Origin: a virus | Lineage: Duplodnaviria; Caudoviricetes | IMG/VR virus record: IMGVR_UViG_3300013426_000017 | Span: 111,407 to 175,406 of that record | DNA: 64,000 bases | Direction: 5' to 3' (one strand) | Part shown: one piece after another, positions 2,999-21,874 of the stretch | Layout: each line of letters opens with the position of its first letter | Numbering within the stretch: the first letter of the stretch is position 1 | Program-made: the position numbers and the translations under genes | The notes under the pieces: model-generated | What the model was told of the DNA's origin: nothing | The model's input: the letters and a program-made list of their open reading frames with translations, nothing else | Databases searched by the model: none

Positions 2999-5086
2999 CT
3001 AATTAAGTACGATTTATTGAGCATTGAAGCGCTAGATAAAATGCATATTTGTCTAGATCTGTTACATGATTATAATTTGATACCAGATGGTACAATTAAA
3101 GAGCGATATGATAAAATTTTAAATATTTATACCATTAATCGTACCGATCAGAACATGTGGCATAAAGTATGGAATCATGAAATATTATCATTATTTCAGA
3201 TGGAGAAGCAGAGCGGTATTAAAGGTATCGCCACATTAAAGCCTACGTCAGTTGATGATTTATCAGTTTTAAATTCTACTATTCGACTTATGGCGCAAGA
3301 AGGCGTTGATGAAATGCCAACTGATAAATTAGCAAGATTTAAAGCTGACCCAAAAGCTTGGGATAGAGAATTAGCACAATGGGGTCTTGGCACCTTGGAA
3401 AAATCTATTCTTGAACCAATCCTGAAATCATCTTATGGTCTATGTATTACACAAGAGCAGTTCATGGAACTGGTTCAATTACCTGAACTAGGCGGCTTCT
3501 CATTAACCTGGGCAGACAAATTACGTAAATCAATCGCGAAGAAAAATCCAGCAGCATTTGATGCATTAACCGAAGAATTTTATGCTACCACAAAAGAAAA
3601 ACATATAAAAGAAAATTTCGCAAAATATGTGTGGCAAGTCCTAATTAGTATGTCGAAGGGATATGGATTTAATGCTTCTCATACGCTAGCCTATTCGCTC
3701 ATTGCGCTACAGGAAATGAATCTTGCAACAAGATTCCCAATTATTTATTGGAATTGTGCTTGTTTAATTAATGATAGTGGTACCGGTATAGATGATAATG
3801 ATGCATGCATTGATTATGATGAACTCGAAAATGAAAAGGATAAAGCAAATACTGATTACGAAAAACTAGCTCGTGGAATCGGCAAAATGAAAGACTTTGG
3901 AGTCCAAGTTAATTTGGTCGATATTAATAAATCTGGATTTACATTTGTTCCTGATGCTGAAACAAATACCATCTATTGCGGTTTGAAAAGTATGCTCAAT
4001 ATTAATGATGATATTGTAAATCAAATCATTGAGAATCGTCCTTATTCATCGCCTAAAGATTTCTACCAAAAGGTAAAGCCAAAGCGCCAAGCAATGATTT
4101 CATTAATCAAAGGTGGCGCATTTGATTCCATGATGGAACGTAGCGATTGTATGATTTGGTATATTTGGGAAACCTGTGATAGGAAAAGTCGTATTACATT
4201 GCAGAATATGCCAAGTTTAATTAAATATGATTTGCTACCAAAAGATACAGAAGAACGTAAAACTGCATTTCGAGTTTATGAATTTACAAAGTATTTAAAA
4301 GCGACATGTAAGAACAAGGCAAAGCCTGGTTATTATATTCTAGATACTAGAGCAATTAATTTTCTTGTTGAAATAAAATGCGATGATAAAATTGAAATGA
4401 AAGAGCAAGAGCTTGTATTAGACGAAAAAGTCTGGGATAAAATTTACCAAAAATGGATGGATGTTTATCGAGCTTGGATTAAGAGTAATCATGACCAAAT
4501 CTTGCAAGATTTAAACACTATTATATTCTATGAAGATTGGAAGAAGTACATTAAGAAGAATAATTATTCTGCTTGGGAAATGGAAGTGCTGTGTTTCTAT
4601 TATCATGCCCATGAATTACAAGATGCTAATGTGGCGAAGTATGGAATAAAAGATTTTTATAAATTACCAAAAAACCCGATAATTGAATATTCGTATCCAA
4701 TTAAAGATAGAATAATTAATATTTACCAATTAACCAAAATTTGCGGCACTTGTATTGCCAAGAATAAAAATAAATCTACTATATCATTACTTACGCCTAG
4801 CGGTGTTGTAGAAGTAAAATTTGCAAGAGATTTTTTCTCAATGTATGATAAGCAAATATCTCAGCGCCAAGAGGATGGAAAAAAGAAAATCATAGAGCGT
4901 AGTTTTTTCCAGCGCGGTAGCATGCTCATGATTACCGGTATACGTAGTGATGATATGTTTATTTGTAAGAAATATAAAAACACCCCTGGACACAGATTGT
5001 ATAAAATAGAAGAAGTGGCGCCAGATGGTGATTTAATATTAAGAAGTGAAAGATACAAAGGAGAAATGGAAGAAGATGGCATATAA
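2999..5086 (+). CDS. dnaE: DNA polymerase III alpha subunit, exon 2
   Basis: LFQME, CITQEQFM, ADKLRKSIAKK, YGFNASHTLAYS, DINKS, LIKGGAFD and a C-terminal OB-fold-like region. Confidence 0.95.
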   Translation, partial: LIKYDLLSIEALDKMHICLDLLHDYNLIPDGTIKERYDKILNIYTINRTDQNMWHKVWNHEILSLFQMEKQSGIKGIATLKPTSVDDLSVLNSTIRLMAQEGVDEMPTDKLARFKADPKAWDRELAQWGLGTLEKSILEPILKSSYGLCITQEQFMELVQLPELGGFSLTWADKLRKSIAKKNPAAFDALTEEFYATTKEKHIKENFAKYVWQVLISMSKGYGFNASHTLAYSLIALQEMNLATRFPIIYWNCACLINDSGTGIDDNDACIDYDELENEKDKANTDYEKLARGIGKMKDFGVQVNLVDINKSGFTFVPDAETNTIYCGLKSMLNINDDIVNQIIENRPYSSPKDFYQKVKPKRQAMISLIKGGAFDSMMERSDCMIWYIWETCDRKSRITLQNMPSLIKYDLLPKDTEERKTAFRVYEFTKYLKATCKNKAKPGYYILDTRAINFLVEIKCDDKIEMKEQELVLDEKVWDKIYQKWMDVYRAWIKSNHDQILQDLNTIIFYEDWKKYIKKNNYSAWEMEVLCFYYHAHELQDANVAKYGIKDFYKLPKNPIIEYSYPIKDRIINIYQLTKICGTCIAKNKNKSTISLLTPSGVVEVKFARDFFSMYDKQISQRQEDGKKKIIERSFFQRGSMLMITGIRSDDMFICKKYKNTPGHRLYKIEEVAPDGDLILRSERYKGEMEEDGI

Positions 5087-5687
5087 AATCTTGGCACTCA
5101 TGGGTGCTGCTGGTGTGGGCAAAAGCGCCGTGCTTCATGCACTCATGACCCAGGCGCCTCGCTTCCATGAAATTATTAGCTGCACTACTCGCCCTCCTAG
5201 AGAGGGTGAAGTAGATGGTATTAACTATCATTTTTTATCACATGATGATTTTGCTGAACAAATTAATCAAGGAAAAATGATGGAAGTGGCAATATTTCGT
5301 GGTTGGTGTTATGGCACCTCATTTGATAATTTGGCGCCAGATAATATAAATGTCGGCGTATTTAATCCGTCAGGTATTGCAATGCTAATGGATGATAGTA
5401 ATATAGATCTGTTTCCTGTTTGGATTCAGGCATCTGATAAAACTCGGCTATTACGCCAGTTGAATCGAGAGCACAATCCCGATGTAAAAGAAATCATTCG
5501 TCGATATTCTACTGATGAAGAAGATTTTAGCGATATAATAATAAAAGATGATCTAGGGTATAAAGCCTATTATGAATCATACCCTATTGCAATTATTAAC
5601 AATGAAAATCGCACACCAGAAGAAACAGCAATAGAAATTCTAAATCTTGTATCCGCTTGGACAAAATCAGATAATTTATCTATTTAA
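5076..5687 (+). CDS. gmk: Guanylate kinase
   Basis: P-loop GAAGVGKS, SCTTRPPREGEVDGINYHF, YGTS. ATG at 5076 overlaps the dnaE end. Confidence 0.92.
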   Translation: MAYKILALMGAAGVGKSAVLHALMTQAPRFHEIISCTTRPPREGEVDGINYHFLSHDDFAEQINQGKMMEVAIFRGWCYGTSFDNLAPDNINVGVFNPSGIAMLMDDSNIDLFPVWIQASDKTRLLRQLNREHNPDVKEIIRRYSTDEEDFSDIIIKDDLGYKAYYESYPIAIINNENRTPEETAIEILNLVSAWTKSDNLSI

Positions 5688-5702
5688 AAACCTATATATA
5701 GT
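5659..5702 (+). promoter_or_regulatory. Putative promoter with shared upstream motif (nrdD operon)
   Basis: GGACAA-N5-GATAAT-N21-TATAGT, one of nine similar copies. Confidence 0.55.
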
Positions 5703-5737
5703 GATATGAAATTTTAGAATAGAAAGGAGATAATTTT

Positions 5738-8700
5738 ATGACAGTTGAAAAACGAGATGGTTCATTAGTGCCATTTAGTAGTGATAAAATTATTAAAGCA
5801 ATTGAAAAAGCATTTCTTGAAGTAGATGGTGAAATCTATGAACATGACACAGCTAAGGATATTGCATACGAAATTGGTAAAGAATTAATGAATCAATTAT
5901 CGCCCATGTCTGTTGAAGATATACAAGATCGAGTAGAAGATTACTTGATGCGCTCTGAGAGACGAGATGTGGCGCGAGCCTATATTCGTTATAGATATAA
6001 AAAAGAAATGCTACGACAATCTAATACTACTGACCAGTCTATTAAGGAACTGCTGGATGGTAATAGCGATTATTGGAATAATGAAAATTCAAATAAAAAC
6101 GCAAAACGCACTACCGTTCAACGTGATTACATGGCTGGTATTGTAAGCACTGATATTACCCGTAGATTTCTATTAGATCAAGATATAGTAGATGCACATG
6201 ATGCAGGCATAATCCATTTCCACGATGCAGATTATTTCGCACAAAATGCAATTCATAACTGTTTTTCAAGAAATACTAAATTTATTACTAAAAAGGGCAT
6301 GTGCTCTTTTAATGATTTTAAAGATGGAGATACTATTGAAGTTCTGTCAATTGATGGGAAGTATCATAAAGCAAAAGTAAGACAATATGGCCTACAAACA
6401 CTTTATAAATATACTTTTTACAATGGGAAAAAAGAATATACCCATGATGTAATAGCAACAGAAAATCATCGGTGGATTCTAAAAGATGGAAAAGAAACAA
6501 CTTCTTTAAAAGAAGGAGATAAATTATGTAAAGCTCCCGCTATCTACTCACAAGAATTAGACTGGGACAAATTAACAGAAAATGAAAAGATGATGTGGTG
6601 TAAAGGCTTTGGAATGGGTGACGGAACTAAAGAATATAATACCAATTCTACTAAAATCCGGTTGTGCGGAGAAAAAGATTTACAATTTATAAAGCGTTTT
6701 TCTATACCAGGATGCAGTATTAGAAATACTTATTTTACTAATGGCGATAAAGAAGTCGTGATTTATAATTATAAAAAAACCATACCAGAATTTAATTCAA
6801 TTAAAGAATTACAATGCTTTATTAATGGCTTATATTGTGCCGACGGACGAAAGAAAAAAATGGCAAATGGTAAATATAATTTTGGCTTACAATCTTCTTC
6901 TTTAGAAATAATTGAATTTTTAAGAAAAATGGCTGGAACGGCTGGTTTATATATTACTAGAGAAAATGATCGCACTGGTGAGATAACTAATTTTACCTCA
7001 AAAGAAGGACGTCCTTACACAATTCTTTTTTCTTTTAATAATGATTTTTATTTTAATTATACCGTTTTGAAAAAAGAATATTATGGAGAAGATATTGTTT
7101 GGTGCCTTGAAGTTGAGGATACACACAATTTTATTCTTGAATATGGAATACCAACTGGAAACTGCGAATTAATTAATCTTGAAGATATGTTGCAGAATGG
7201 AACAGTTGTTAATGGCGTAATGATTGAAAAGCCTCATAGATTATTAACAGCAACAACTATAGCTACTCAAATTATTGCAGCTGTGACATCCTCATCCTAT
7301 GGCGGCGCCACAATTTCATTGACTCATCTTGCCCCATTTGTTCGAGATAGTTATTATTATTATTGCCAAAAATATAATAAACGTGGCTGTTCAGCAGTCG
7401 ATAGTTTAAAGTTCGCAAAAGAAGACTTGGCTAAAGAAATTTCTGACTCTGTGCAAACATTTAATTATCAAACCAATTCAATGACTAACACTAATGGTCA
7501 AGCGCCCTTTCTCTCAGTATTTATGTATCTCAATGAAACAGATGAATACAAAGACGAATTAGCTATGTTAATTGAAGAATTTTTGAAACAGCGAATTCAA
7601 GGATTTAAAAATGAAAAAGGCGTATATATTACACCAGCATTTCCTAAACTCCTCTATGTTCTTGAAGAAGATAACATCACATCTGATAGCAAGTATTGGT
7701 ATTTAACAGAATTAGCAGCCAAATGCACGGCTAAGCGTTTGGTGCCTGATTATATATCTGAAAAGATAATGAAACAACTCAAGGGTGGTGATGTATATCC
7801 ATGCATGGGTTGTAGAAGTTTTCTCACACCTGACCCTGTCGAGCATAAATACTATGGACGGTTGACTGCTTAGGGTTAAGCCGTCGTTAAATCGCGTGAA
7901 CATATGAAAAAATGGTGTGGGCAATATGCCTGCTAACGGTGAAACCCAAGGGCAATACCGTGCCAAGTCTTATTATAATTACTAAAATAAAGGAGTTTTT
8001 ATAATGAAAACTATATTTTTACAAAATAAAACATTTAAACAATTTAAAAAAACTAAATATTATTGTGATGATAATGGTACTATTTATTCCGATTACTCAC
8101 ATAAAATATTAAAACCTATGACTAAAGGTAAAGAAAAGCCTTATTATTATATTGATATAAATTTTGGTGAAGGACAAAAGCACTATCCTATTCATAAAAT
8201 TGTTTATGAAACATGGATTGGCCCAGTAGAAAATGGATTAAGTGTTTTACACAAAGATGATAATAGTTTAAATAATAATATAAATAATTTATATTTAGGA
8301 ACTCAAAAAGAAAATATTCAAGATTGTATTGAAAATAATCATAGAGTAGGAAATATTTGGATTTTAACAATTTTTGACAAAGAAAAAAAAGAAACTATTA
8401 CATTTTGTCCAGCTAAAAAATTTATTGAATATAGTGGCCACTCCAATAAAAGTGGATGTTTAAATAAGTTTTTCAATAAAAATTGGTTTAAGCAAAGATA
8501 TAAAATTATTGATTATTATAGATGTAAAAATTTAGTTGAAAAGAAAGGTGTAACGACTATGGATGATGAATGTAATCCAGTAGGGCAGAATTTATCACTG
8601 CTCGAAGCGCGCGACACTTGTTTAAATATAAGTGAAGAGATAGTCTAATTTTGTTAACCAAGGCGTAGTCACAATTAATTTGGCTGATGTAGCATTTAGC

Positions 8701-15349: not shown

Positions 15350-15874
15350 ATGTTGGAATTTATAGCACAATACTGGCTGGAATTTGTATTAGGCATCGTC
15401 GCTGCTGGACTAATTGGTCTAGCTAAATATTTTTGGGGCTTATTTAAAAAGCACATTAAAGAAACTCTTACAAATGAGATTAGCGCCATGACAACTACTA
15501 TACAAAAGTCCATGGAAGCTAATGATGAGAAACTGGGTATCCAAATCAATAAACTAGATCAAAAGATTACTGATTTGGAACAAAAGGCCACCCAAACGGC
15601 CGCCACAGAAAAAGGCTTGGATGATAGGCTCGACAAACTCGAAGAAGATCTTACAATTCTCAAGGATGGCGTTTTGTCCATCCAAAAACAACAATTTATG
15701 GACGAATGCAAAACACTCATTAATTAGGAAACGCCAATTGAGTATGAACAATATGAAAAAATAACCAATGAGCATCGGGTATATAATGCACTTGGCGGAA
15801 ACCATGATGGTGATGAGTTATATAAACTTGTATTTAATAAGTATAGCGGCCAGTTAGAACATACACAGAAATAA
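15350..15874 (+). CDS. Holin-like single-pass membrane protein (174 aa, 1 in-frame TAG)
   Basis: N-terminal TM helix and coiled coil. After TAG 15725 it continues to YNALGGNHDGDELY, a YxxLGGN motif I recall from Firmicute phage lysis-region proteins. Confidence 0.65.
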
Positions 15875-15924
15875 AAAAATGGGGAACTAATACTGTGAAT
15901 ATTAGTTCCCCGATTTATTTTTTA
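15875..15924. terminator. Bidirectional intrinsic terminator between convergent genome arms
   Basis: A-run, GGGGAACTAATA-loop-TATTAGTTCCCC, T-rich run. Confidence 0.85.
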
Positions 15925-16233
15925 TTCTGTCATACGAGTAAATATTTTATTAGTTGTATCTATGATTTCCTAACCATAAGTAGCAATAAGGTCTGCTAGT
16001 AATTCTTCTTGCTAGACATTTAATTCTACATTATAGCTAAACATCGCCGCGTGTGTTATTTCATGGCACAGCACTTTTTTCATGCGCTCTGGTGATAAAT
16101 TTTCATTGATATAAATTGTTTTCGACTCATCATCACATGAACCAATGGCTAATGTGCCATTACTACGGATTAATTTAGGATGAATAGTGGATGTTAATGC
16201 AATCATCCACTATTCACCATTTATCTTGAACAT
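15922..16233 (-). CDS. Small HEXXH metallopeptidase-like protein (103 aa, 3 in-frame TAG)
   Basis: MFKINGE[TAG]WMI...G.CD...IYINENL...VLCHEITHA...[TAG]QEELLAD. Minimal zincin (ImmA/IrrE-like) layout. Confidence 0.75.
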
Positions 16234-16234
16234 C

Positions 16235-16804
16235 TCATTTTATCTTTGCTGCTAGAGCGGAAATCTTGCTTTGTAGCATCTGCTTTTCTTCGGGCGATGC
16301 ATCATCAATCATTTCTGCAATATCAACAGAGAGTTCTTGCATGTAATGTTCCAAATCCTTTAGCTGAGTTGTTTTATCTTTATGTAATTCTTTCGATTCC
16401 ATATACATTTTACGGCTCATAGGGCTGCGTCCTTCGCGCCTATCCCGCAATTCCATGGGATAAGGGCGTTCAGTATAATACGTGGCGCCGCCCGATTTAC
16501 CGGTCTCATAACCACCAGTATCATGCCCGCCAGACCTGTCGCCGCCATAATACATACGACCATAATCTTTATCCATGTCTCTTAGATAATCTCTGCTGTA
16601 TGGACGATACTCGGTGTAATATTTTTTTTCTTCTTCGCTCTTCTCCATGGCTTCGGTAATCTTCGCGTAGTAGCAGGCCTCCTCCATATCCTTGATCATG
16701 TCTACTACTTCACCAAGTTCTTTTGCATCAACTTGATCGAGCTTGCCCATTTGGCCACTGACCTGAGTTATCAAGCAATCTTTAATGCTTTTTAATCTTT
16801 CCAT
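16235..16804 (-). CDS. Hypothetical protein of the six-gene module (charged, helical, Tyr/Arg/Gly-rich middle)
   Basis: 189-aa ORF, LGEVVDMIKDMEEACYY...EEKQMLQSKI. Confidence 0.8.
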   Translation of the reverse strand: MERLKSIKDCLITQVSGQMGKLDQVDAKELGEVVDMIKDMEEACYYAKITEAMEKSEEEKKYYTEYRPYSRDYLRDMDKDYGRMYYGGDRSGGHDTGGYETGKSGGATYYTERPYPMELRDRREGRSPMSRKMYMESKELHKDKTTQLKDLEHYMQELSVDIAEMIDDASPEEKQMLQSKISALAAKIK

Positions 16805-16805
16805 A

Positions 16806-17225
16806 TTACGCCACCCTTTCTACTATTAAGCTAGCGTTCTGAACATCTACTGCAACCGTAGAGGTATTCTCAACACTAACTTGTGTGCAGCATCCAGAAG
16901 GAACGTTCAAGAACAACGTGCGAGAAACATTAAAGAATTCCTCAACGGCTGCTGGGGTTACTATCATTTGGGTTGCTGATACAGGTTCGCCATTAATTGC
17001 AATTGCTAACTGAATTGGACCGGCAGTTCCGCCAGTAGGCAGTGCAATGTTGGCGCCGAAGGTCACGCGAAATCTGGCGCGACTCTGGTTAGTTATGCCG
17101 CGGAGGGTAATGAGACCGCTACCCTCTCTGTGCATAATGGAACAGCTACCAGCAACAGCAGTATTAGTAAATTCTACATTAGAGCCGGCATTAACCGTCT
17201 ATAAAGCATTGGCTGTTATTTCCAT
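16806..17225 (-). CDS. Beta-sandwich protein, possibly BclA-C/TNF-like (139 aa, 1 in-frame TAG)
   Basis: RBS AGGAGG. MEITANAL[TAG]TVNAGSNVEF...FRVTFGANI...LAIAINGEP...VSVENTS...NASLIVERVA. Alternative ATG at 17231. Confidence 0.7.
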
Positions 17226-17245
17226 AATCATTTACCTCCTGTTAA

Positions 17246-18318
17246 TTAACCGTTGCAGTTACAAGTGTTACCATAAAGGTAATTGCATCCGCCGTAGGAA
17301 GCATAGGGATTCTGCACAACGTATGCAGGAATAGGTGCGCGCTGTGCCAGCTGAGATACGAGGTATGCATTTTGCTCACTCTGAGAAATCTGACCACGAA
17401 GCGAAGCATTCTCTGCATTAAGCATATCAAGTTTATCCTGAACAAGGAAGTCAAGAATAGAACGCATGCTAGCGTTAGTGTTGTCAATAATGTCACGTGC
17501 TGCATCCTGAGTAGCGCGACGATTCTCACAAGCCTGGCTCGCCAAATTGTAGTTTAAGTCGGCAAATGAACTCTGAATAAGCTGTTTTGCATCGCAGCAG
17601 CACTGTGCTTGCTGAGCGGCCATTGCAGCTAACTGACTATTGGTCTGATAATGTGCATCAATGATCGCACCAGTAATAGCATTGGTATTCTGCAAGTTGG
17701 TCATGCCCATGTTACAGATATCACTTTGGATATTACGTGCACTACCATTTACAGTCTCATTGACACCCGAGAAACCAGCCAAGAGGCTAGAGTTAAGACC
17801 ATAAGCACTATTAGCAACATCGCTAGTGATACCACGGATGCCACTTCTAATATCGCTAAGATCGAAACCATAAGTGAGTTCGTCGCGAGTAAGAGCACCC
17901 TGATAGCCTGCACCGTTGGAGCCATTATTGCCACCCCAACCGCCGCCCCAGCCAGCGAAGCAAAACAGAAACAGGATGATGATCCCAATAATGTTACCCT
18001 ATAGGCTTTTTATCCTATAGTTCTAATACTTGAATTCGTATTAGTTCAGCATATCTTTTTAATTTTTGTATTTTATCAAAAATTATCGCGGCCTCGTGGT
18101 AGGATTATATCTTTTCACCTACTATGCGTTGCCCCTGACTAGTCTTAGACTAGCCTTCGGTTCGGATTAGCATCTCAGCCTTCCCGCTTAATTCCGCGAT
18201 TTAACCATGGCAAATCATCTTACCATGCACCGTCTCCGCCCCACATGCCGCCATTGCGGTCGTTACCAGTAGCCGCAGCTATGTCAGACAAGCTGTAGCC
18301 CGAATTTGTGTTGAACAT
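17246..18318 (-). CDS. Gly-rich membrane/coiled-coil protein, 278 aa; join(complement 18318..18222, 17985..17246)
   Basis: MFNTNSGYSLSDIAAATG...GGDGAW-W-IIILFLFCFAGWGGGWGG...AQCCCDAK...coiled coil...PIPAYVVQNP..CNCNG after intron removal. RBS AAAGGGG. Confidence 0.85.
17986..18221 (-). mobile_element. ORF-less group I intron (236 nt)
   Basis: Minus strand: P1 CATGGT/GCCATG (U.G), IGS GATGATTT pairs the 3' exon GGATCATC, P3 ATCGCGG/CCGCGAT, P7 GCATA/TATGC in AAGATATGC, P9 hairpins, terminal G. Removal restores the frame. Confidence 0.88.
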
Positions 18319-18348
18319 ATTAAATGTCCCCTTTCATAAAATATATTT

Positions 18349-18591
18349 TTACAACCCCAAATTATTTTTGAAGTTTGTAAATTCTTGATCAAAATCTACG
18401 CCACGAGAAGCGCAGAAGTTGCGGGCAAATTGTTCAATACCTTGAGCATTATTATTCTGGGCTAATGATAATAAGTTTGCTCCAACAGGATTAGATTGAG
18501 CTTGGTTCTGAAGCATATTAAGCATTAACTGTTGAGGATTTTGCCCACTTTTAATCATTTGAATTAATTGCATAGGATTCATTTGCGGCAT
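18349..18591 (-). CDS. Small Met/Gln/Asn-rich helical protein (NP repeats, STI1-like appearance)
   Basis: MNPMQLIQMI..QNPQQLMLNML..SNPVG. RBS GAGGTG. Confidence 0.75.
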   Translation of the reverse strand: MPQMNPMQLIQMIKSGQNPQQLMLNMLQNQAQSNPVGANLLSLAQNNNAQGIEQFARNFCASRGVDFDQEFTNFKNNLGL

Positions 18592-18607
18592 TGTAATTCA
18601 CCTCACT

Positions 18608-18985
18608 TTAAAATTTGTATGGCGCCGGCTCGGTTTGTGCCTCATTAGTCGGCGTGGTAGTAGGTGCGCTAGGTCTAGGCTGCGCCACTAACTCTTGAAT
18701 CTTTAGCAATGCGCTTTCAAATTCTGCTCTTGTGACGTAATCAGCTGTAGGCGCTACTGGCATAGGCTTCAGTTCATACATATTCAATGTAGCAGTTCCA
18801 TCCATATTAATTTGTTTAGTATATATTTTCTTATTCGCCAAATCAGGAAAATAAAATACTGAACCATCAAAATCAATGGAGAGCGCACGAGCTTCTTCAA
18901 GAGAGGACACAGGGCGTCCTTTCAATGAGTAAGAAGGCTGCCTAGGCGGTTGAGTTGGTGCTTGGAAATAATTATTACTATACAT
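18608..18985 (-). CDS. Hypothetical protein, first gene of the six-gene module
   Basis: LKGRPVSSLEEARA..DFDGSVFYFPD..KIYTKQINMDG..YVTRAEF. Start at 18985 or 18994. Confidence 0.78.
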   Translation of the reverse strand: MYSNNYFQAPTQPPRQPSYSLKGRPVSSLEEARALSIDFDGSVFYFPDLANKKIYTKQINMDGTATLNMYELKPMPVAPTADYVTRAEFESALLKIQELVAQPRPSAPTTTPTNEAQTEPAPYKF

Positions 18986-19015
18986 TGCTAACATCCTTTC
19001 ACTATTTTTCTTTCC

Positions 19016-19060
19016 ATTATATATTGGAAATTGGGATAGAATGATTAATCTACTTTGACA
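19016..19060 (-). promoter_or_regulatory. Putative promoter of the six-gene module with shared motif
   Basis: TGTCAA-N5-ATTAAT-N22-TATAAT. Confidence 0.6.
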
Positions 19061-19095
19061 ATGTTTGTAAAATTTTTTGTTACAAATTTTTGGGC

Positions 19096-19138
19096 AAAAA
19101 AATAAGGGACATCCTAAAAATTAGGATGTCCCTTTTTT
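19096..19138. terminator. Intrinsic terminator after holin
   Basis: AAGGGACATCCTAA-AAA-TTAGGATGTCCCTT flanked by A and T runs. Confidence 0.85.
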
Positions 19139-19148
19139 CTATTATATA

Positions 19149-19541
19149 TTACTGTTTAGACTCTTTAACCGATGCTTCAATACGTTCAGTGATATAGGTT
19201 TGCAAGTCGCCAATCACCATCGGCAAATATTTATTGGCCTCATCGCCAAGCGTGCCTAGAACTGCATTATAAGTTTTATTAAACGCTTCTTTCTGTGCGT
19301 CAGCATCAAATGCGTTCTTCTCTTTCAACGATTCAACATAAGTCTGATTTGTTGCCGTAACGCACTTGACTATTGTATCATTGAGAATATCAAGATACTT
19401 CTGCGCCAACTCATTATCGGTCTGTGCCTTGATTTGATCTTTCTTCTGGGCGATATATTCAATAACGAACTTCGCCACAATGCCCAGCAAGGGCACAATA
19501 CATAATTCAAAAATCTGCTGTAATATAGATAACCAATCCAT
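19149..19541 (-). CDS. Holin (LL-H-like)
   Basis: MDWLSILQQIFELCIVPLLGIVAKF TM helix, then TIVKCVTATNQTYV..LK...F...KEA...IEASV. Confidence 0.7.
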   Translation of the reverse strand: MDWLSILQQIFELCIVPLLGIVAKFVIEYIAQKKDQIKAQTDNELAQKYLDILNDTIVKCVTATNQTYVESLKEKNAFDADAQKEAFNKTYNAVLGTLGDEANKYLPMVIGDLQTYITERIEASVKESKQ

Positions 19542-19555
19542 TAGATTATCCTCCT

Positions 19556-21874
19556 TTATATTTTGGTTAATTTCCAATTGGAACCATCATACACATATGG
19601 AATAGCTTGCTACCAACCGCTGTTAGAAGTAGCGCCAGTGTATATCCATACATGATAATCGCCCCAATCGGTACCATTATTTATCTTTACTGACCATTCA
19701 GGTTCCCAAATGGCATATAACGACATATTAGATGTCTATTCATAATTTGTTCCTGAAGAATAATTAGTTCCTGTGCCATCTGCAGATGTATTCCAAGCAA
19801 CGAATTTATAACCAACTCGTGATACATTTGGTGGGTTAAATTTAGCTTTAATTGTTGTCCATTCAGGATATAATGTTAAATTAGATGTAAGAGTATAAGT
19901 GCTACCACATCGCCAATAATCTACACCATCACCTGATGAAGCAACCGCACCGCTATAATTCTGATTCCAATAATTCTACTAGTATTGAATTGCATCTTTT
20001 ATCTAATACCTTGGTCCGTTAGCGACTGCGGTTGCAGAATAAGTATAACCAGAGGAAGGATAGTTATATGATACAATACTACCACCCGATAAATAATAAT
20101 TAGTATAGTATGTTGTACCATTAGAACGAGTATAAGTGGCATCTCGAATCTTGAGCTTATAATTAGTAGTGGTTGCAGAATAAGTGGTAGATGGTGAACC
20201 ATATCGACCGGGATTATAAGTTACAGTATATTCATTTGCTTGCCAAATTGCGTATAAAGTACCGGTATATCCCGCATCAAGTGCATCCATAGGAGCGTCA
20301 TAACTGGTACCAGTACCACTTGAATTTGTGTTCCATTCAATAAAAGTAGCAGAACTATTAACTGGCTAATAAGAATGATTTGTAGAATATCGAGTACTCG
20401 TGGTTGTGGTAGAACCATAACCATATTTTCGTTTAGTAACCTATTTCCAAGCCGATGAAGAAGCAATAGAATACCCGTTACCGTTTAATGAACAAGTAGT
20501 AGTTGTTGTTCCATCCCAAAGGGCATATAACGAACCAGCATATCCAGCTTCAAACGCGCTCTATGGATTAGAATAGACAACAGTATATGAACCACTTGAA
20601 GTGGCCCAGCCTTTAAAACTTGTATATCCCGAAGGAGCTGAAGGGGAATAAGAACCATTGGTATATGTAGTTCCACCACCGCTTGGAGTAGGTGATTCAC
20701 CATATAACCAAGCTTCAGCCGTCGTGCTTTTCGCAGTTGCGACAAAAGAACTAGAACAGTTATATAGAGTTATAGACTTGCTGCTAGCGCTTTTTTTGAA
20801 TACACACCAACGCTCTTTGTTATTATAGGTAGCAACCCAAGTGGAACTCGCAGTCTAATCTACTGACGTTGTATTTGGGGAAGATGCATAGCCAACAAAC
20901 GTGTATCCACTAATTGGTGGGTCCTGGCTACCGAGTGTATAATCTTGTGATTTATATTTGTCAGCGCTAGTCATTTCAAAAGTGCCAGTAGAACATAAAT
21001 GAACTTGCCAAGTGTATGATGGGGCCACAAAAGTTAAATAATTAGCTGTGCCTGAGTATGTAGCTGTCTAATTAGGAATAACTGTGCAATAATATAATTT
21101 ATAATATCGAGAAGTGCTAGTATCCTAATCCACTTTAAAATTACACGAAGTAGAATTAGCAGTAGACTCACTACGAACATAATAAGGACCAGTGGGATTG
21201 TTACCCACAAGCCATCGACCTGAATAAGAACTTTTTCCCTAAAAATATTGTGCACCAGAATATAAACCGTAGCCAAAAGTAGTTCGAGTTATGCTTGTAG
21301 GCTTGTATGTATTTACAGTAGGTTCTGTATAGTTGAAAGTCACTGAAAAACGAGACGCTGTAGATAAATTCCACTGGCACATAGCCGATGTATTCCAAGG
21401 ATAGGAAGCAATATAAATGTAAACTCCACTGGTATTAGCCGCAGACAAATTAAACTGTTTTGCAGAATAATTAAAAGTAACATTGCCAAAACTATCTACG
21501 GCTGCTGTTGGCGTAGTGGCGTAGACTAAAGTAGTATCGCCTAATTTTGTAGGACCTGAATTCATCCAACCAGAAGGCGTGTCTGTGGAAGCGGTAGAAA
21601 CAGACATATAACTACCCAGCTATTTCCCACTTGCAATACCCGAACAGCGTGCCAACTAAATGGTAAAATTAATATAATTAATTGTAACCTTTTGATTTTT
21701 TAAAGCGGTTGGGATTGGAACATAAAAGACTGCAACTGCACTACCACTACTACCGTATCCTACATAGCCGCCTCCACCTCCAGAATATTTTGTACCCCAA
21801 GTCCAACTTGATCCCACACCAGATTTACCATAAAATCCGGACAGGTTATTATGAGAATACGTTACTGAAGCCAT
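19556..21874 (-). CDS. Ser/Thr/Tyr-rich virion accessory/fibre protein with InlB-B (Listeria-Bacteroides)-like repeats (772 aa, multiple TAG)
   Basis: Track fragments 21656-21874, 21239-21607 and 20003-20290 share one frame. Repeats GY.F.GW/WNT..GTG..Y...LYA.W. C-terminus GW[TAG]QAIPYVYDGSNWK. Confidence 0.75.

Follow-up and report, generated by a model that had tools for sequence, protein, structure and literature searches.

What do six adjacent genes of a gut phage encode, when none of them resembles a standard capsid, tail, replication or lysis gene, and do they form one functional system? We examined this question in a 64,000-nt window, namely positions 111,407 to 175,406 of the 175-kb Caudoviricetes record IMGVR_UViG_3300013426_000017, whose late genes read TAG as Gln; a neighbouring 772-aa ORF, for example, has 14 in-frame TAGs. 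The first-pass annotation, which was made from sequence alone, had proposed here a terminator-bounded six-gene module with its own motif promoter, and had interpreted it as a fibre or coat built on the host membrane, spore or virion, for protection, spore hitch-hiking or superinfection exclusion. The observation itself was confirmed by our analysis, because all six ORFs are present on the minus strand (15922-18994) and form a self-contained cassette, which is carried by thousands of gut and rumen phages. The interpretation was supported only in part, as explained below.

Both bounding hairpins, at 19104-19134 and 15881-15911, have a 14-bp stem followed by a T run on both strands and form bidirectional terminators, in a region that holds 10 terminator-like sites against 3.2 expected. 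The former, whose stem has 6 GC pairs, separates the cassette from a TAG-free holin gene directly upstream (19149-19577, minus strand; phrog_13712 at 3e-30), and relatives have a hairpin at the same place. The latter is shared with a convergent gene (15350-15874, plus strand, one TAG) for an XhlA-like protein with a TM segment and a coiled coil, which was assigned by weak matches to phrog_4257 and the hemolysin XhlA families and whose position is conserved in relatives. The claim of an own promoter was only partly confirmed. The leader or putative promoter region (18995-19103, minus strand) holds a block of TTTTTGNCAAA type that is conserved at the same place in relatives, together with the palindromes TTGTAAC...TTACAA and TTTCCAATATATAATGGAAA, but the block is not clearly enriched in the window (10 matches against 5.3 expected) and no sigma-70-like site was found there on the right strand.

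We next examined the genes one by one in the order of transcription. Searches of Pfam, PHROGs, NCBIfam and PADLOC gave no capsid, tail, replication, lysis or defence assignment for g1 to g5. The first gene, g1 (18608-18994), encodes 128 aa from the first ATG, or 125 aa from the ATG at 18985, which has the better-placed AAAGGA; its product has a Q/P/Y-rich N-terminus, a small conserved core and a C-terminal helix, matches phrog_21718 at 9e-6, and has no PDB or Pfam relative. The second gene, g2 (18349-18591), encodes an 80-aa Met/Gln/Asn-rich helical protein. The first-pass annotation had read it as an STI1-type holdase for TM segments, but this reading is not supported, because no STI1 or related chaperone hit appeared in Pfam at E<=1 and the only hit was DUF6240 at E 0.012, below its cut-off; only the composition resembles STI1.

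The third gene, g3, reaches 278 aa only when exon 1 (18222-18318; 32 codons plus the T of a split TGG codon) is joined to exon 2 (17246-17985), and its translation ends at TAA if unspliced. An uninterrupted 278-aa homologue in a 95%-related phage reads ...GDGAWWIIILF... across the junction and fixes it at T|GG, and other uninterrupted homologues also span both exons, so that precise removal of the 236-nt intervening sequence (17986-18221) restores the reading frame. This sequence is a group-I-like intron: its RNA fold has z = -4.9 with a P1-like pairing of the 5' exon end, and its core is 75-93% identical to intergenic or endonuclease sites in Listeria, Bacillus, Exiguobacterium and C. difficile phages. 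However, the Rfam group I covariance model gave no hit at the gathering score or at E<=10, and contigs from RNA libraries, which cannot show absence, contained only 90-95% relatives and no spliced joint. The g3 protein has, encoded by exon 2, a hydrophobic WWIIILFLFCFAGW segment flanked by Gly and Trp, a Gly-rich linker and three long predicted helices. It matches phrog_16490 at 2e-34, and an alignment of the family shows invariant C161-163 (the CCC), C185, R188 and C274-G-C276 (the C-terminal CxC). The AlphaFold2 model is an all-helical rod, but with low confidence (pLDDT 58). The family has 3,796 clusters at 50% identity. The earlier description of g3 as having one hydrophobic segment, long helices and conserved cysteines was thus supported, whereas the disulfide linking proposed for it is doubtful in strict anaerobes.

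The fourth gene, g4 (16806-17225), encodes 139 aa with an invariant CC and matches phrog_20016 at 8e-56. Its family has more than 5,100 clusters, nearly all of 139 aa and standing alone, and a search for longer proteins found only one fused form, so that the protein is not a head domain at the end of a collagen-like or coiled-coil stalk in the same polypeptide. The AlphaFold2 model (pLDDT 91.7) has a ten-strand jelly-roll beta sandwich of the TNF/C1q type, in agreement with the proposed BclA-C/TNF-type fold. In a Foldseek search against the PDB the top hits were F-BclA (9h38), ExsFA (7r1m), BxpB (8d02) and BclA (1wck) at E about 1e-6 to 1e-5 (full range 6e-7 to 3e-5) and TM 0.70-0.77, followed by TNF-family ligands (4-1BBL, EDA) and C1q-domain proteins (C1QTNF5, C1QL1, C1qA). 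Sequence membership in Pfam BclA_C (PF18573) was not obtained, because the score was 17.0 bits against a cut-off of 38 (E 0.006), although the match covers the full length. The single in-frame TAG of g4, at codon 9, falls on the invariant Gln9 column.

The fifth gene, g5 (16235-16804), encodes 189 aa with conserved N- and C-terminal helices around a variable Tyr/Gly/Ser/Arg-rich linker and has no Pfam or PDB relative. The last gene, g6 (15922-16233), encodes 103 aa with TAG at codons 8, 74 and 88 and an HEITH motif, and the earlier assignment to HEXXH peptidases was supported. Peptidase_M78 (PF06114) scored 34.4 bits against a cut-off of 22 (2e-8), DUF6782 was also matched, H57, E58, H61 and E76-E77 are invariant in 15 sequences, and the nearest solved structures are the minigluzincins selecase MJ1213 and projannalysin at E 0.002 (PDB 4qhf-4qhj, 4jix). 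It differs from ImmA/IrrE of the Peptidase_M78 family in having no partner repressor or HTH, and from both groups in being fixed at the 3' end of a six-gene cassette.

Co-occurrence of the genes in conserved order, whose absence had been named beforehand as a refuting condition, was then examined in about 90 phage loci, and the order was kept; similar clusters do exist in gut phages, as the first-pass annotation had suggested. Among the 63 loci with full flanks, the g2-g3-g4-g5 order is kept in 62-63. On the basis of local profile HMMs, g1 was found in 53 of the 63, always upstream of g2, and g2 in 62, directly upstream of g3, while iterated HMMs merged all post-g4 genes into one family (that of g5) present in all 63. 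Cassettes carry either the HExxH gene at the 3' end (27 loci) or an unrelated protein at the 5' end (30 loci); three loci have both, but the g6-like gene there is unlinked, and three have neither. The 5' protein has invariant Cys18, His98 and Asp109, in papain-like order, and a CPxC motif, but its peptidase nature is unproven, because Pfam gave no hit and hhalign against a three-sequence C39 alignment gave a probability of 0.09; the only lead is an ESM Atlas neighbour cluster in which 20% of members carry C39. The order holin, cassette and convergent XhlA-like gene is kept in about 25 large relatives. The flanks vary and include holin, endolysin, integrase, TerL and head genes, and the genomes range from 20 to 190 kb. 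Introns or inserts occupy g3 at two or more sites in different relatives.

What, then, does the cassette do? Our best explanation, to which we assign a probability of only about 0.4, is that it is one copy of a mobile accessory cassette of gut and rumen phages, expressed in the late phase, that builds a membrane-tethered rod-and-knob complex in the infected cell. The analysis established that g3 carries the only hydrophobic segment in the cassette, followed by about 170 residues of predicted helix and the invariant cysteine clusters; that g4 is a stand-alone protein of predicted TNF/C1q fold, always encoded next to g3; that g2 and g5 are universal partners, within the counts given above; that g6 is a minimal Zn peptidase by sequence; and that g4 and g6 cannot be translated without TAG=Gln. 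The rest was inferred: that g3 oligomerises into a rod held in the cytoplasmic membrane by its Gly/Trp-flanked segment with its bulk on the cytoplasmic side, that a g4 trimer docks on the rod, that the low-complexity proteins g1, g2 and g5 act as adaptors or a matrix, and that the peptidase processes one component, cutting of g3 at the conserved GG(D/N)GAWW just before the hydrophobic segment being one possibility. In this view, the complex would act on the membrane at or near lysis, in timing, membrane disruption or a related late step, and would not be a spore or virion coat.

Late expression is suggested by the TAG codons of g4 and g6, that at Gln9 being expected to gate translation of g4 to the late phase, and by the position of the cassette at the end of the TAG-rich late arm. 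The cytoplasmic-side reading is based on the finding that g1, g2, g4, g5 and g6 have no signal peptide or hydrophobic segment, and that the flanks of the g3 hydrophobic core carry only 0.5 and 0.8 K/R on average with an acidic N-tail; an external fibre or coat is accordingly not supported, and an assembly on the cytoplasmic face, or one released at lysis, fits better. The occurrence of one or the other small protein in most cassettes suggests that an enzyme is an integral part, and the intron invasions suggest that g3 matters during lytic growth. A lysis neighbourhood was found also in unrelated lineages: Ceridwen and Dulem virus 33 carry the cassette just after the endolysin, Dulem virus 35 has XhlA-like and small TM genes beside it inside the head module, and crAss-like cr116_1 has its g3 homologue 1.2 kb from the holin and L,D-carboxypeptidase genes. 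However, lysis genes usually sit at the end of late operons and next to cargo slots, so this adjacency may be positional coincidence; the phage already has a holin and an Amidase_2 endolysin, the latter 43 kb away; and a position beside integrases and before terminases is typical of morons. The hydrophobic core is short (12-15 residues) and has no positive-inside signal, so it may not be a classical transmembrane anchor. No experiment, proteome or paper that we found assigns any function.

Comparison with individual systems gives partial resemblances. The resemblance of g3 to lysis accessory membrane proteins, such as the i-spanin Rz and XhlA of PBSX, lies in an N-terminal hydrophobic segment followed by a putative coiled coil with conserved cysteines, in its location next to holin or XhlA-like genes and in its inferred late expression. 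However, g3 has no spanin or XhlA match in PHROGs or Pfam, no cassette protein is a candidate lipoprotein partner, the cassette occurs in phages of monoderm hosts, where spanins are not needed, and its five soluble partners have no counterpart. With ExsFA/BxpB and the C-terminal domains of BclA and F-BclA, which belong to the exosporium and F-type endospore appendages of the Bacillus cereus group (PDB 8d02, 7r1m, 9h3d, 1wck, 9h38), g4 shares the predicted jelly roll, and like ExsFA/BxpB it is a stand-alone protein of about 140 aa and is paired with a cysteine-rich partner, but sequence identity is only 11-16%, the collagen-like stalk is absent and the invariant CC motif is its own. The g3 profile also matches residues 2-79 of influenza HA2, the N-terminal fusion-peptide and helix region of a class I fusion subunit, but only at E about 1e-3 and in a manner driven by composition. 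A Gly/Trp-rich hydrophobic segment, long helices (predicted at low confidence in g3) and a protease encoded alongside are common to this comparison, but g3 has a 30-residue segment in front of the hydrophobic stretch and tailed phages have no envelope.

Among the alternatives, a superinfection-exclusion, defence or counter-defence cargo, in which the membrane-anchored complex blocks DNA entry by other phages or interferes with host systems, is less likely but possible. Insulation by its own terminators, insertion next to integrases, after lysis genes or before TerL, and spread across unrelated phage types fit a self-contained moron, and a membrane anchor fits exclusion proteins such as T4 Imm and lactococcal Sie. 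On the other hand, PADLOC gave no match, g4 and g6 in recoded phages need TAG=Gln and so cannot be made early or from a silent prophage, and g4 was found in only 7 of 399 sampled host genomes of the class, so that it is mostly a feature of free or virulent phage genomes; six genes with three low-complexity proteins are also unlike known exclusion determinants, which are single proteins. A virion-associated module, in which g3 and g4 form a decoration fibre or an ejected membrane-penetrating protein whose Gly/Trp segment would act like a fusion peptide once freed by a protease, appears unlikely. It is favoured by TNF/C1q knobs being common tips of phage fibres and spikes (cyanophage A-1(L) fibre 8ke9 and phi812 spike 9eul are among the g4 hits), by the aforementioned HA2 match, by annotation of g3 homologues in crAss genomes as 'spike protein/glycoprotein' or 'viral fiber', by the location inside the head module in Dulem virus 35, by the inferred late expression, and by a neighbour of the g3 homologue in a Bacteroides phage that hits phrog_473, 'virion structural protein', at 1e-8. 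It is, however, hard to reconcile a fit to a specific capsid or tail lattice with the occurrence of the same cassette in phages of very different size and gene order, including crAss-like ones, and g4 is almost never fused to a fibre or collagen stalk.

The spore reading, an exosporium-like coat or fibre that lets the phage ride on or modify host spores, is strongly disfavoured. The structural neighbours of g4 and the Cys-, Tyr- and Gln-rich compositions of g3, g5 and g1 do recall coat proteins, but the TNF/C1q fold is widespread, carriers include a phage of non-sporulating Butyrivibrio fibrisolvens and MAG contigs binned to Selenomonadaceae and wall-less Anaeroplasmatales, and the g3 family reaches Crassvirales, a Bacteroides phage and viruses of Methanomassiliicoccales. 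A more far-reaching possibility, which we regard as unlikely although it is not excluded, is a previously unrecognised, protease-activated membrane-remodelling machine, shared by phages of Gram-positive bacteria, with its g3 rod also shared by Gram-negative and archaeal gut viruses. Cleavage at GG(D/N)GAWW would free a fusion-peptide-like N-terminus on an oligomeric, metal- or disulfide-stapled rod capped by a TNF-like trimer, and the machine would execute or time a late membrane event such as rupture, vesiculation or release; this would be a new class of phage lysis or egress factor, independent of holin-endolysin-spanin logic.

These families are very large, with at least 7,900 clusters of the alternative 5' protein besides those of g3 and g4, and they are strongly conserved and move between unrelated gut and rumen phages, yet no library or paper that we searched describes the cassette or gives them a function. 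Newly found here are the invariant Gln of g4 written as TAG, which serves as a natural timing marker, the alternation of two small proteins, one a peptidase by profile and the other a candidate enzyme, with the exceptions counted above, and the absence of export signals in the partner proteins. Because culturable carriers exist, namely Butyrivibrio phage Ceridwen for the whole cassette and Bacteroides phage C3_41T2LP for the rod protein, the question of function is directly testable. A six-gene unit that so many phages retain, and that mobile introns target, is likely to give a general fitness benefit in anaerobic gut ecosystems.

The region examined is the last 64 kb of a 175,406-bp IMG/VR virus record that is 96% complete, and its minus-strand late genes are open only if TAG is read as Gln; for example, a 772-aa ORF at 19556-21874 (minus strand) has 14 in-frame TAGs. 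No tRNA, and so no suppressor tRNA, was found within this region. Six co-oriented genes lie between two strong bidirectional hairpin terminators (19104-19134 and 15881-15911), each composed of a 14-bp stem with a T run: g1 at 18608-18994, g2 at 18349-18591, g3 at 17246-18318 (interrupted), g4 at 16806-17225, g5 at 16235-16804 and g6 at 15922-16233. A holin gene (phrog_13712, 3e-30) lies just upstream, at 19149-19577, and an XhlA-like gene encoding a TM segment and a coiled coil converges from downstream. The 772-aa ORF lies directly upstream of the holin gene, and its product, a Ser/Thr/Tyr/Gly-rich repetitive protein, is probably a fibre or adhesin. A late-promoter motif valid for the whole region could not be shown. 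The observation of six genes made in the first-pass annotation held, and the sizes that it gave (125-128, 80, 278, 139 and 189 aa, and an HExxH protein) are all correct.

The g3 gene stops after 32 codons and resumes in another frame 236 nt later. Because an uninterrupted 278-aa homologue in a 95%-related phage reads ...GDGAWWIIILFLF... across the gap, an intron that splits a TGG codon is fixed at 17986-18221 (minus strand). This is a group-I-like intron in a gene not concerned with DNA metabolism; the intervening RNA folds strongly (z -4.9), and its core is 75-93% identical to intergenic or endonuclease sites in unrelated Firmicutes phages, namely Listeria LIS04, Bacillus BpSp, Exiguobacterium and C. 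difficile phiCD211 phages, although an Rfam search found no group I model on it either at the gathering score or at E<=10. We also looked for spliced RNA in sequencing runs. A DNA-type run (X7) holds the stretch with the intron, whereas contigs of RNA libraries (X3 from pig gut, X4, and X1 from wastewater) cover only parts of g1, g2 and g3 exon 1, come from relatives at 90-95% identity and give no joint over the intron, which is no evidence for or against expression or splicing. Many contigs hit only the intron core, and those resembling only this core reach summed depths of 200-470 in RNA-seq and wastewater runs, with loose ends at 17986-17992 and 18024-18032.

To examine whether the six genes form a conserved unit, we collected by tblastn and pattern scans 7 GenBank phage loci that carry the cassette, 6 genome contigs and 77 IMG/VR loci, and applied iterated local HMMs to all ORFs. 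In the 63 loci with complete flanks, g2-g3-g4-g5 are present in that order in 62-63 loci and g1 is detected in 53, and g3 and g4 are adjacent wherever both genes were detected. About 25 large (100-190 kb), TAG-recoded relatives keep the whole arrangement of holin, g1 to g6 and then a convergent XhlA-like gene. In other phages the cassette sits in different places: after the endolysin in Butyrivibrio phage Ceridwen and Dulem virus 33, beside an integrase in Dulem virus 39, between head genes in Dulem virus 35, and upstream of the large terminase. The cassette therefore behaves as an insulated, mobile unit.

The families are very large. The g4 family has more than 5,100 clusters at 90% identity, nearly all of 139 aa, and a search for fused forms found only one, a 521-aa protein (P0121) carrying Pfam PF05133 (SPP1 Gp6-type portal), which may be a gene-calling merge or a real fusion. 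The g3 family has 3,796 clusters at 50% identity, all of 200-360 aa. By contrast, only 7 of 399 sampled host genomes of the relevant class carry g4. One genome, an Anaeroplasmatales MAG (G004, the source of locus L009), holds two g4 copies, at 75217-75633 of contig C2 and at 22283-22699 of contig C37, one of them with two in-frame TAGs, suggesting a recoded phage contig binned with, or infecting, this wall-less lineage. The g3 family (phrog_16490) reaches further than the rest of the cassette: it occurs in Crassvirales, where it is annotated 'spike protein/glycoprotein' (1.8e-50 to the PHROG), in a cultured Bacteroides uniformis phage, and in viruses assigned to Methanomassiliicoccales. In one of these viruses with a Methanomassiliicoccales host (Caudoviricetes sp. 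vir215, locus L094) the g3 homologue at 3878-4759 sits just downstream of a reverse transcriptase and a tail protein, which looks like the neighbourhood of a diversity-generating retroelement. The genes next to the g3 homologues outside the cassette are not detectably related to g4 or g5, as examined by hhalign against the genes that follow the g3 homologue in crAss-like cr116_1, and only the rod protein, and perhaps a small peptidase, are shared with Bacteroides phages.

The AF2 model of g4 is confident (pLDDT 91.7) and is a TNF/C1q jelly roll, whose best matches among solved structures are F-BclA CTD, ExsFA, BxpB and BclA CTD (E 6e-7 to 3e-5, TM 0.70-0.77, 11-16% identity), followed by TNF-family ligands (4-1BBL, EDA), C1q-domain proteins (C1QTNF5, C1QL1, C1qA) and phage fibre or spike knobs. 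BFVD holds many stand-alone phage look-alikes. At the sequence level, however, g4 fails the Pfam BclA_C cut-off and a PDB profile search gave nothing significant; Cys112-Cys113 are invariant. The g6 product is a minimal HExxH peptidase by sequence, with Peptidase_M78 above the cut-off, an invariant H57-E58-xx-H61 and E76-E77, and MJ1213 selecase as the nearest solved relative at E 0.002.

The g3 product has a conserved N-terminal motif, a short hydrophobic core (WWIIILFLF type, 12-15 residues) and a Gly-rich linker, and predicted helices span 75-105, 116-171 and 177-247; C161-C163, C185, R188 and C274-G-C276 are invariant. The model has low confidence (pLDDT 58), and a Foldseek search with it found no structural neighbour. 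A PDB profile search gave only a marginal, composition-driven match to the fusion-peptide region of influenza HA2 (E about 1e-3), which probably explains the 'spike' annotations. We considered a double-glycine leader at the g3 N-terminus, but the GG motifs that are present do not lie at a constant distance from the conserved N-terminal helix, and the idea stays speculation. For g1, g2 and g5 we found no relatives of known function: PDB profile searches gave nothing significant for g1 and g5, and the ESM Atlas returned only unnamed viral clusters for g1. The g1 product is a Q/P/Y-rich tail plus a small core and a helix, g2 is an 80-aa Met/Gln/Asn-rich helical protein, and g5 has two conserved helical ends around a variable Tyr/Gly/Ser/Arg linker. 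PADLOC and NCBIfam gave nothing for any of the six proteins.

We next explain five results that this analysis newly adds, the first of which concerns timing. The single TAG of g4 is codon 9, the column of the family's invariant Gln, which is a clean internal confirmation of TAG=Gln decoding, and g6 has TAGs at codons 8, 74 and 88. Without TAG=Gln decoding, g4 stops after eight residues, and in this phage the cassette therefore belongs to the late, recoded programme, not to an early or prophage-expressed one. Another result is the existence of two cassette architectures. Twenty-seven loci end with the HExxH gene, whereas thirty instead begin with an unrelated 125-aa protein (phrog_3754) having invariant Asp17-Cys18, His98 and Asp109 and a C73-P-x-C76 motif; three loci have neither, and in the three with both the HExxH-like gene is unlinked and on the other strand. 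The family of this 5' protein is also very large, with at least 7,900 clusters, and has no Pfam. Its fold is unproven, because an hhalign comparison with C39 peptidase domains was negative and only a lead from the ESM Atlas, which otherwise returned unnamed viral clusters, points to C39; on the other hand, the invariant NTCPxCYTVKEF stretch (columns 69-88 of the family alignment) resembles the glutaredoxin active-site region (7c10, E 0.05), and a redox role, rather than or besides a peptidase role, is therefore possible. This near-exclusive alternation suggests that an enzyme acting on a cassette component is integral to the function.

The remaining three results concern export, inserts and the endolysin. 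No hydrophobic or signal segment was found in g1, g2, g4, g5 or g6; the flanks of the g3 hydrophobic core are almost free of Lys/Arg (0.5 and 0.8 on average), and its N-tail is acidic. By the positive-inside rule this argues against export of the large C-terminal domain and favours a complex on the cytoplasmic face, or a segment that is not a classical anchor. The g3 gene is also a recurrent target of mobile introns or homing elements, since it is interrupted at two or more different positions in relatives by inserts of about 0.3 to 1 kb: about 1-kb inserts occur in loci L019, L022 and L023 (about 5590-6566), and other interruptions in loci L025, L026 and L039-L045 (listed as L025, L026, L039, L040 and L042; L043; and L044 and L045). 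As for the endolysin, the holin gene is TAG-free and has no endolysin gene beside it, but the phage has an Amidase_2 endolysin candidate, the only one, 43 kb away on the other arm (86710-87162 of contig C1 in the genome, G000); Amidase_3, GH25, NlpC/P60 and CHAP were not found in the genome. The cassette need not supply a muralytic enzyme.

The interpretation offered in the first-pass annotation was only partly supported. Its spore or exosporium reading rests only on the fold of g4 and on composition, and is contradicted by carriers on non-sporulating, diderm, wall-less and archaeal hosts; its proposal that g2 is an STI1-type holdase has no profile support. Because lysis genes recur next to the cassette in at least five unrelated lineages, we tentatively favour a role at the membrane around lysis, with a probability of about 0.4, although this adjacency could still be positional coincidence. 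Cargo for exclusion or counter-defence is less likely but remains possible, and a virion-associated fibre or membrane-penetration device, which appears less likely again, cannot be excluded either.

Literature searches found no description of the cassette, and it cannot be filed under any known system. The conserved gene order, the TAG codons and the alternation of the two small genes are direct results of sequence comparison and the fold of g4 is a confident prediction, whereas splicing, late expression, anchoring by the hydrophobic segment, the cytoplasmic location, processing by the enzyme and the role around lysis are inferred. What the evidence supports is a late-made complex centred on a hydrophobically anchored helical rod and a TNF-like protein, with three low-complexity partners and a processing enzyme.
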